Assembly (NCBI GenBank): GCA_047602405.1
Contig: JASGHJ010000002.1
Location: 96,001 to 160,000 of the forward strand
Direction of reading: 5' to 3'
Origin: Anaeromyxobacteraceae bacterium
GTDB taxonomy: Bacteria > Myxococcota > Myxococcia > Myxococcales > Anaeromyxobacteraceae
DNA: 64,000 nucleotides
Below the pieces are notes generated by a model. It made no database searches. It had not been told where the DNA came from and saw only the letters and a list, made by a program, of their open reading frames with translations. Each line of letters opens with the position of its first letter. Position 1 is the first letter of the stretch. Positions 26,478-29,065 of this stretch are shown here, one piece after another. A program made the position numbers and the translations under genes.

Positions 26478-26810
26478 GTGAATCCGGACCAGCGCATCGT
26501 GGCCTTCCAGGCCTTCGTGGCGAAGAGCCCCGGCGACGCCTTCGCGCGCTACTCGCTCGCGATGGCGCTCCGCTCGGCGGGTCGCCTGGAGGAGGCCGTG
26601 CGGGAGTTCGAGGAGAACGTCCGCCGCTGCCCGGACTACGTGCCGACCTACCTCATGCTCGGGCAGTCGCTCGAGGCGCTCGGCCGTGCGCCGGGCGCCG
26701 CGGCCGCCTACGAGCAGGGGGTGGCGGCGGCGGGGAGGGCCGGCGATTCGCACGCCGCCTCCGAGATCGGCGGGGCGCTCGAGGCGCTCCGCGCGAAGGG
26801 AACGACATGA
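26478..26810 (+). CDS. small TPR protein
   Basis: PGDAFARYSLAM and PDYVPTYLMLGQ; ATGA overlap with fabI. Confidence 0.8.
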   Translation: MNPDQRIVAFQAFVAKSPGDAFARYSLAMALRSAGRLEEAVREFEENVRRCPDYVPTYLMLGQSLEALGRAPGAAAAYEQGVAAAGRAGDSHAASEIGGALEALRAKGTT

Positions 26811-27670
26811 GCATCGATCCGAAGGACGTGGACGTCACCCGGGCGAGGATGGAGACGGACGACGTCCGGCTCTCGCTGGGCGGCCTGATGAAGGGCAAGC
26901 GCGCCGTCATCTCCGGCGTCGCGAACGACCGCTCCATCGCGTGGGCGATCGCGGAGGCGTTCCACCGCGAGGGCGCCGAGCTCGTCTTCACCTACCCGGG
27001 CGAGGCGATGGAGAAGCGGGTGCGCCCGCTCGCCGAGTCGCTCGGCGCGAAGGCGTGCCTCGACTGCGACGTCTCGAAGGACGAGGACCTCGACCGCACC
27101 GCCGCCGAGATCGCGAAGGTGTGGGACCGGGTCGACGTCGTGCTGCACTCGATCGGCTTCGCCCCGCGCGCGGCCCTCGACGGCCGCTTCACCGACGTGA
27201 CCACCCGCGACGCATGGCGGATCACGATGGACATCTCGGCCTACTCGCTCATCGGGATGGCCCGCTCGCTGAAGCCGCTCATGAAGCCGGGCGCGTCGAT
27301 CCTGTCGCTCACGTACTACGGCGCCGAGAAGGTGGTCCGGAACTACAACGTGATGGGCGTCGCGAAGGCCGCGCTCGAGTGCGCCACCCGCTACCTCGCC
27401 GACGACCTCGGCCAGGACGGCATCCGGGTGAACAGCATCTCGGCCGGGCCCATCAAGACGCTCGCCGCCGCCGGCATCAAGGGCATGCGGACGATGCTCT
27501 CCGAGAACGCCGCGCGTACGCCGCTCCGCCGCAACGTCGAGCAGGAGGACTGCGCCCGCGCGGCCCTCTACCTGTGCAGCGACCTCGCCCGGAACGTGAC
27601 CGGCGAGATCCTCCACGTGGACGCCGGCCAGAACATCCTCGGCACGGTGTCGATGGGCGAGGAGAAGTAG
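26807..27670 (+). CDS. fabI: enoyl-ACP reductase FabI
   Basis: GVANDRSIAWAIA, HSIGFA, YNVMGVAKAALE, SAGPIKTLAA. Confidence 0.96.
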   Translation: MSIDPKDVDVTRARMETDDVRLSLGGLMKGKRAVISGVANDRSIAWAIAEAFHREGAELVFTYPGEAMEKRVRPLAESLGAKACLDCDVSKDEDLDRTAAEIAKVWDRVDVVLHSIGFAPRAALDGRFTDVTTRDAWRITMDISAYSLIGMARSLKPLMKPGASILSLTYYGAEKVVRNYNVMGVAKAALECATRYLADDLGQDGIRVNSISAGPIKTLAAAGIKGMRTMLSENAARTPLRRNVEQEDCARAALYLCSDLARNVTGEILHVDAGQNILGTVSMGEEK

Positions 27671-27728
27671 CGCCCGCGCCTTCGTAGCCCTCCTGCAGGC
27701 GGGTTTCCTCTCTGGGGGTGCCGTGGGC

Positions 27729-27971
27729 GGCCGGCTCGCCGGGCCTCTCCGCTCCTCGGGCCGTTGGGCAAAGGCCCGCCGCGCAGGGGATCCTGGAGAC
27801 GGCACCGGATCGGTGGAGACCCGCGGCACGTCCACGCGTGCCAGCCGAGTGGGACGTCCACGATGAGCTGACGTCTCCGGCTCGGCTGTCACGCTCCGTG
27901 CAGATCGCGGCTCCGTCGTTGGGCGGGCCAGCCGAAGGCCCTGCGGGGCAGAGAGGCCCGGCGATCCGGCC
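27729..27971. repeat. structured repeat unit A (terminal 21-bp inverted repeat), paralogue of unit B in opposite orientation
   Basis: 27729-27749 pairs with 27951-27971 (20/21); shares exact 18-20 bp blocks with the reverse complement of 28104-28372. Confidence 0.85.
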
Positions 27972-28028
27972 GCCTGCGATCGGGGTGATGGGTCGAGGAG
28001 GGATGGCGGACGCGTTGGAGAACTCGGA

Positions 28029-28068
28029 GAACGTGAGGCTTCAACTCCGAACGTAAGGCTTCAACTCC
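28029..28068 (+). repeat. 2 x 20-bp tandem direct repeat GAACGTRAGGCTTCAACTCC between units A and B
   Basis: 28029-28048 and 28049-28068, 19/20 identical. Confidence 0.9.
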
Positions 28069-28103
28069 GGAGCTCCGCCTCTCCCCCATCTCCACGCAAC
28101 CCA

Positions 28104-28372
28104 GGCCGCCTCGCGGGGTCTCTCCGCACCGCCGGCTTTCGGCAGGCCCGCCCAAGATCGGAGCCGCGATCTGCACCAAGCGTGACGGCCGAGGCGGCCA
28201 GCACCGCGTCACCTTCGTCACCGCCCCGCGCCCAAGACCACGCACCTCCCGCCTCGGCTGGCACGCGTGGTGGTGCCGCGGCTTTCCCATCCCCGGCACC
28301 GCCTCCACGATCCCCCACGCGGCGGGCCTTTGCCCAAGGCCAAGCGGTGCGGAGAGGCCCCGCGAGGCGGCC
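28104..28372. repeat. structured repeat unit B (terminal 29-bp inverted repeat)
   Basis: 28104-28132 pairs with 28344-28372 (28/29; the exception is G.U on the + strand). Confidence 0.85.
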
Positions 28373-28408
28373 CATCGGACAGGTCACCAGGACTGGACGA
28401 GGGAACAG

Positions 28409-29065
28409 CTACACGAACCGTCCGCGGGGCTTCTTCTCGCCCACGAATGGGTTCGTCCGCCGCTCGTCGCCGAGCCGGCCCGCCGGGCCGTGGCCCGGGT
28501 GGAAGGTGACGTCGTCGCCGAGCGGGAACAGCCGCTCGACGATCGACGCGCGAAGGGCGTCGAAGTCGCCGCCCGGGAGGTCGGTGCGGCCGACCGAGCC
28601 CGCGAAGAGCGTGTCGCCGGTGAAGAGCACCTTCGCGTCGGGGAACCACAGGCAGGTCCCGCCGCGCGTGTGCCCCGGCGTGTGGAGCACCTGCCCGACG
28701 TGCTCGCCCACCCGCACCTCGTCGCCCTCGCCGTGGCGGAGGTCGACGGTGGGCGGGGTCGCCCGCGGGAAGCCGAACATCTCGGCCTGGCCGGGCAGCG
28801 CCGCGAGCCAGGGCTCGTCCTCCGGGTGGATCGAGAACGGCGCGCCGGTCGCCTCGCGGACCGCCTCGGCCGCGGTCACGTGGTCGATGTGCCCGTGCGT
28901 CGCGAACACGCGGGTGACCTTCAGGCCGCCCGGCTCGCGGAGCCCGAGGATCCGCGGCGCCTCGTCGCCCGGGTCGACGAGCACGGCCTCGCCGGTGCGG
29001 TCGCACGCGACGAGGTAGCTGTTCTCCTGGAACGGGCCGACGACGACGCTGCGGACGACGAGCAC
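28409..29065 (-). CDS. MBL-fold metallo-hydrolase (GloC/YcbL-like)
   Basis: THGHIDH, HTPGHT, FTGDTLFAGSVGRTDLPGG, PGHG. Confidence 0.93.
   Translation of the reverse strand: MLVVRSVVVGPFQENSYLVACDRTGEAVLVDPGDEAPRILGLREPGGLKVTRVFATHGHIDHVTAAEAVREATGAPFSIHPEDEPWLAALPGQAEMFGFPRATPPTVDLRHGEGDEVRVGEHVGQVLHTPGHTRGGTCLWFPDAKVLFTGDTLFAGSVGRTDLPGGDFDALRASIVERLFPLGDDVTFHPGHGPAGRLGDERRTNPFVGEKKPRGRFV

Follow-up and report, generated by a model that had tools for sequence, protein, structure and literature searches.

A dispersed non-coding repeat of two facing hairpins behind stop codons in Anaeromyxobacteraceae: a candidate oversized REPIN-like element

The window, i.e., the whole 64,000-nucleotide stretch analyzed here (contig JASGHJ010000002.1 of assembly GCA_047602405.1, positions 96,001 to 160,000), contains a fabI-like gene and a convergent metallo-beta-lactamase-fold gene (MBL gene), with two facing, self-folding units, A and B, in the gap between their ends (Table 1). 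The first-pass annotation had described these units as diverged inverted copies sharing three exact blocks, and re-examination bore this out: the blocks are identical at 20/20, 18/18, and 18/18 positions, the + strand of A and the - strand of B are 72% identical over ~270 nt, and each unit folds on itself better than its shuffled counterparts (A, z = -8.5; B, z = -10.2; 0/200 shuffles as good), with ~90-105 predicted pairs per 245-270-nt unit. The gap also lacks a credible open reading frame (ORF), as had been proposed, with codon log-ratios of -0.41 to -0.61 per codon for the 4 ORFs tested, all non-coding, whereas fabI scores +0.47 and the MBL gene +0.39. Neither unit matched an Rfam family, a single chance match inside fabI being the only one returned. 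What we took to be a likeness of the unit to the HDV-type ribozyme motif was dropped, with no match in Rfam and the expected upstream pairing absent by eye. Furthermore, neither a promoter-like (sigma-70-like) site nor a U-tract terminator signature was found in the region.

Table 1. Features of the fabI-MBL gap and its host genes, in window coordinates.
Feature	Position	Strand	Remarks
fabI-like enoyl-ACP reductase gene, left host gene	26807..27670	+	PF13561; 58 nt separate its stop codon from unit A
Unit A, outer unpaired foot motif	27712..27728	+	boundaries set by eye; loosely CGTC-tag-like in the family, degenerate in this copy
Unit A	27729..27971	+ (favored)	subtype A, ~245 nt; composed of a long outer stem, a side region and an apical hairpin that both vary, and an inner stem that is conserved
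Unit A, inner core	27821..27910	+	part conserved across species
Unit A, C.T mismatch of inner core	27841 opposite 27889		flanked by invariant pairs
Spacer	27972..28103	.	A-type tail ~35 nt, 20-nt tandem duplication at 28029-28068, B-type tail ~25 nt
Unit B	28104..28372	- (favored)	subtype B, ~270 nt, facing A
Unit B, outer foot motif	28373..28392	-	G010, the sister genome, retains a remnant of it within a 33-nt gap
Metallo-beta-lactamase-fold gene, right host gene	28409..29065	-	PF00753; convergent with fabI

When the whole 650 nt are folded together (+ strand), 209 of 254 pairs form between A and B, so that the structures of the 2 units compete. Folded by itself, unit B is more stable on the - strand than on the + strand (-194.7 vs -177.6 kcal/mol, with 11 vs 4 G.U pairs), and both units are therefore favored when read inward from the flanking genes. 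Two details that had been put forward in connection with strandedness are real, but carry less weight than was given to them: the 2 G.U pairs in the terminal stem of B do occur on the + strand, but do not prove which strand acts, and the C.C mismatch kept in both units is uninformative in this respect, as it corresponds to G.G on the opposite strand. Short tandem stutters of spacer or foot sequence are found at 28029-28068 as well as in the flanks of many other units, hexamer runs lie beside units in 2 related genomes (G020 and G021), and 2 metagenome contigs bridge the fabI-MBL gap wholly or in part, but were set aside as evidence since they derive from other strains.

The pair is not unique to this gap but belongs to a family with 14 loci in the source genome (G000; other G numbers denote related genomes compared with it). 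Together, these loci hold 20 full units and 3 partial or collapsed ones, with pairwise identities of 57-91% and 3 subtypes, A (8 units), B (9), and x (3), of which B and x form well-supported clades. They comprise 6 intact facing pairs, 5 singles, 1 fragment, 1 locus with a collapsed partner, and 1 in which the partners are separated by ~1 kb including an unannotated ORF. By gene calls from a codon model, each of the 14 loci is flanked by convergent genes, compared to a genome-wide baseline of 806/4932 gaps (16%), or 139/987 among gaps of at least 250 nt. The copies are extragenic, multi-copy, and inverted dimers mostly 3' of gene ends, with foot motifs pointing outward in heterodimer geometry.

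Several further features of the source genome are worth recording. All but 1 of the full units (19/20) lie on contig C2 (3.76 Mb), the remaining one on C1 (2.39 Mb), and GC skew was too noisy for placing replichores. A lower-GC ORF (C2:278533-279363, L027:733-1563, - strand) lies between facing units with a third, partial unit adjoining; similar cargo ORFs occur in G012 (C12, L100), and none of the ORFs between facing units matched Pfam. Some units adjoin members of another family of short palindromic repeats, whose end is CGTC-like and whose pattern has 59 matches genome-wide; this family also occurs as a tandem array (e.g., C2:3114645 and C2:3676053-3677028). Moreover, 7 identical-scoring copies of a group II intron reverse transcriptase are present (e.g., C2:1212582).

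The earlier proposal that the structure is under selection was supported by covariation, both within the source genome and across genomes. Among the 20 full units, 22 of 58 consensus pairs have changed on both sides while 95.9% of cells remain paired, a value reached by 0/500 shuffles and compared to 37-47% in slid controls; in the inner core, aligned over 11 genomes (22 rows), 15 of 20 pairs have changed on both sides with 93.5% paired, compared to 25-44% in slid controls, all of these shuffled and slid controls being blind to the relatedness of the sequences. The invariant pairs border one fixed mismatch in the core. Since mismatches and wobble pairs would tend to disappear if one arm were copied onto the other, their retention suggests selection on a specific structure of one strand. 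The inward-reading strand is the more stable in 20/20 units with RNA energies and in 14/20 with DNA energies (consensus, -82.9 vs -75.8 for the other strand). As RNA energies show this bias more clearly than DNA energies do, a role as RNA fits as well, and sequence alone cannot separate RNA from single-stranded DNA as the folded form.

Strong folding and covariation would also be expected of the first-pass annotation's proposed pair of divergently transcribed, locus-specific non-coding RNAs. This proposal has next to no chance of being correct, since the favored strands point inward, no promoter-like site accompanies them, the copies are dispersed over 14 loci among mutually unrelated host genes, and the site is empty in the other genus genomes examined. 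Its counterpart, a non-autonomous mobile repeat, gained ground from the dispersal of the copies, from filled and empty orthologous sites, and from the packaging of the pair as a MITE in relatives.

Filled and empty sites were apparent from G010, a sister genome ~92-95% identical to the source genome in flanking genes. Its fabI-MBL gap is 33 nt long and devoid of hairpins, with only a remnant of the B foot left, and in other genus genomes no unit was found between adjacent fabI and MBL genes (30 loci examined). In total, the hairpins are missing from G010 at 5 of 6 compared loci, the fabI-MBL gap included, and 2 of its empty sites consist of overlapping CTAG stop codons; its tsf locus holds a collapsed pair. 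Conversely, 2 filled sites of G010 have no unit in the source genome. The repeat is thus gained and lost between close relatives, and because G010 retains remnants at 2 loci (the fabI-MBL gap and tsf), some of its empty sites represent deletions rather than pre-insertion states.

Searching the 37 genus genomes with a covariance model of the core gave matches in 8 of them, namely 19 in the source genome, 65 in G048, 45 in G051, 12 in G021, 11 in G020, 8 in G012, 3 in G052, and 1 in G044. At the family level, a looser cut-off returned the core in 13/92 genomes, and in those added by weak matches (G269, G281, G006, and G011) it was present on inspection. In a phylum sample, only the source genome matched (1/149), and a second model applied to an order sample matched 4/150 genomes, all within the same family; the core was not found in any other family searched. 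A two-arm pattern, built on subtypes of the source genome only and thus not reaching diverged subtypes in viral or metagenome contigs, gave 1 match in genome contigs, 0 in viral, and 2 in metagenome contigs, all of them chance matches inside genes, and a plasmid search returned no match. Each carrier has its own set of subtypes, and the group, with a G+C content of 74%, is probably Anaeromyxobacter-like. Facing heterodimers were also seen in G048 and G051.

Copies in relatives are in part bounded by ends of insertion sequence (IS) type. Twelve aligned pairs of G051 are near-identical and bounded by a 15-bp inverted repeat that fits the IS50-subgroup pattern (PMC2266710, Table 1), with exact 10-11-bp target duplications at 4/4 loci with 2 intact ends. 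The pairs of G048 measure 790-927 bp, and their terminal repeats fit the IS4-subgroup pattern (PMC2266710, Table 1; 60 genome matches). Both ends were recognized at 5 of 14 G048 loci, and there 10-bp duplications agree at 8, 10, 9, 8, and 9 of 10 positions. Moreover, the G048 ends match the right end of a complete IS4 element of G051 at 21/22 nt and hold a 59-nt remnant sharing 80% identity with the final part of the IS4 transposase gene of the source genome. Short derivatives (138-255 bp) retain ends and duplications; one short G051 derivative has both ends and no duplication. These IS4-subgroup or IS50-like ends and the 10-11-bp duplications make it likely, at the level of sequence signatures, that the pairs of G048 and G051 moved as MITEs on a DDE transposase.

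The source genome contains 5 near-identical IS4-subgroup elements (C1:1419281-1420723 and 4 other sites) with the same kind of end as in G048, and in 4/5 their 10-bp duplicated targets are centered on a stop-codon CTAG. One of them lies directly upstream of a single-copy Y1 gene (L025), with the IS end extending into the start region of the gene. While IS4 elements with near-identical ends thus exist in G051 and the source genome, the cognate transposases were not found in the incomplete assemblies of G048 (IS4) and G051 (Tn5-type; 81% complete), and no transposase was seen beside the G051-type end sequence in other genomes holding it. In G022 (C6:79803; L262, L278), a lone G051-type end lies beside an ORF that is, by eye, a candidate HNH nuclease. 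A broken Tn5-type gene adjoining a half unit of G020 was judged a coincidence.

It follows from these observations to ask whether all copies are IS4-family MITEs moved by a DDE transposase via terminal repeats, with the ends in the source genome since lost. We consider this unlikely, even though the G048 and G051 ends and duplications fit it, as do the CTAG-centered IS4 targets of the source genome set beside the 2 CTAG empty sites of G010. Within 110 nt on each side of 13 source-genome loci, neither terminal repeats nor target duplications were conspicuous, the window copy has no IS4-subgroup ends, and G021, G020, and G012 lack the IS4-type end pattern. Furthermore, the source-type IS4 transposase was found in only 4/37 genus genomes, the wrappers vary between genomes, and recognition of double-stranded ends would leave the covariation and strand bias 100 nt inside unexplained; the missing transposases of G048 and G051 and the derivative without a duplication count against it as well.

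A second alternative starts from the host genes. The units could be structures selected as RNA in 3' untranslated regions, ending or protecting 2 converging transcripts, with no mover of their own and with passive spread on IS ends that capture them, as they would render gene-end insertions harmless. Consistent with this, the favored strand has the same sense as the nearer gene in 5/5 singles of the source genome, most singles of G012 and G052 start shortly 3' of a stop codon, RNA energies favor the inward strand throughout, and the gene context in other genomes is convergent in 29 cases, co-oriented in 19, divergent in 1, and undetermined in 7. Moreover, 3 unrelated IS ends adjoin the repeat, namely the IS4-type and IS50-like ends and the right end of an IS110 element in G021; this last association is limited to 3 of 8 near-identical singles. 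The orthologous genes of the sister genome manage without the repeat, a U-tract terminator signature is missing, and the spread of wrapper-less copies in G000, G012, G020, and G052 would be left unexplained, which together render this alternative unlikely.

With respect to a mobilizing enzyme, the earlier suggestion to look for a RAYT/IS200-type transposase yielded no such gene adjoining any unit. Y1 genes are present in 35/37 genus genomes, in carriers and non-carriers of the repeat alike, so that co-occurrence is uninformative, and the core was detected at 0/35 Y1 loci examined, these being a subset of the Y1 matches listed. Among 101 flanking proteins (of 111 called at 60 loci), none belonged to a transposase, recombinase, reverse transcriptase, or HUH family; one PD-(D/E)XK protein is encoded ~800 nt from a G020 unit. 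The core model also matched 0/32 loci around reverse transcriptase genes, transposase genes, and stray ends. This bears on a retron- or retroelement-derived origin with copying by a reverse transcriptase, which we regard as very improbable. The terminal stem around a long inner stem resembles retron RNA topology, and msDNA-like repeats have reportedly been seen in a myxobacterium. Nevertheless, no linked retron-type reverse transcriptase was found, G048 (91% complete, 65 core matches) and G012 (56% complete) yielded no reverse transcriptase, and the one beside G051 copies is part of an intron inserted in the terminal repeat.

Taken together, the locus represents one copy of a dispersed non-coding repeat of 2 facing 245-270-nt hairpins behind stop codons, and we put the probability at about 0.5 that it is a selfish element moved in trans, by analogy most likely by an HUH-type (RAYT-like) enzyme. 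A folded single strand would be recognized and moved by an enzyme encoded elsewhere, and structure-specific recognition may maintain the covarying stems and the fixed mismatch. For the source genome, the lack of target duplications together with the structure-specific conservation of one strand suggests movement of HUH type rather than DDE type, and an enzyme of this kind would act there in trans. In 2 lineages, IS4-family ends would have enclosed the pair, leading to its amplification as a MITE, as its end signatures indicate. Because the core is wrapper-less in G000, G012, G020, and G052 and wrappers vary by genome, we infer that the hairpin core predates them. The best reading is therefore that of an oversized REPIN-like selfish element that in some lineages was repackaged as a MITE. 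Several findings count against it: no Y1/HUH gene was found beside a unit, all demonstrable recent bursts show DDE-type rather than HUH signatures, and the unit is ~10x larger than described REPs (20-40 bp; PMC3733652); the stronger strand bias with RNA energies and the remnants in G010 weigh in the same direction.

The repeat is itself a target of other elements. In G051, an IS1111-type element (PF01548 and PF02371, with subterminal repeats) occupies one position in the 3' arm of the unit at 9/12 loci examined, and 10 copies of a group II intron, spread over 9/9 loci examined, share one position within the terminal repeat, these loci having been selected as enlarged-looking, so that neither fraction is a genome-wide rate. 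For the IS1111-type element (L154:2439-3467 and 8 other loci), a guide for the repeat would be expected in the downstream non-coding region. IS1111 targeting of REP and attC sites has been described (PMC11187229); the G051 element resembles it in its subterminal repeats and single fixed position, but its target repeat is much larger, and neither an integron integrase nor a cassette array was observed. A more speculative proposal, to which we assign a low probability, is a structured 250-300-nt module with its own undiscovered mobilizing enzyme or a function as a two-way transcript insulator, which would have persisted across 2 genera through independent capture by IS4, IS50-like, and IS110 ends and become abundant enough for an RNA-guided IS1111 element and a group II intron to specialize on it as a target.

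No published description of the repeat family was found in a search of largely open-access main texts, and PMC6006769, as far as consulted, held nothing specific to this bacterial group. If the REPIN-like reading is correct, REP/REPIN-like repeats would extend to a ~10x larger unit whose cross-species covariation marks a specific recognized structure, and the birth of a MITE would become traceable, with one passenger gaining IS ends of different kinds in sister species. With an invariant core and only a few Y1 (3 types) and IS4 proteins in the source genome, the identity of the mover is open to direct tests, which bears on what mobilizes repeats without a dedicated transposase, a question raised for CGTC REPs (PMC3733652).

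Compared with known systems, the repeat resembles head-to-head REPIN/REP dimers in forming extragenic palindromes and inverted heterodimers after stop codons and between convergent genes, and REPs more generally in occurring as singles, in tandem arrays, and with DNA inserted between partners (PMC3116915, PMC3733652). It also shares with CGTC REPs the lack of a known dedicated transposase. However, its unit is a self-folding branched rod of 245-300 nt and not a 20-40-bp stem, the CGTC REP palindrome having an 8-9-bp stem and a 4-5-nt loop (PMC3733652). Where REPs carry an unpaired GTAG or CGTC tag at the foot of the stem, a loose CGT(C/T)-containing foot recurs in several genomes here and is degenerate in many copies, both window units among them. 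Unlike in REP/RAYT systems, no repeat-flanked RAYT gene was found. The terminal repeats and 10-11-bp duplications of G048 and G051, together with the transposase remnants of G048, are as in IS4-family MITEs (IS4 and IS50 subgroups; PMC2266710), although the G051 duplications exceed the 8-9 bp listed there for IS50. Unlike such MITEs, the window copy has no ends of this kind, and the interior is a conserved, covarying structure common to genomes with different ends. Thus, its size and the lack of a linked RAYT at the loci examined place the repeat outside the REPs, and the window copy is not a MITE, while the repeat works like both.
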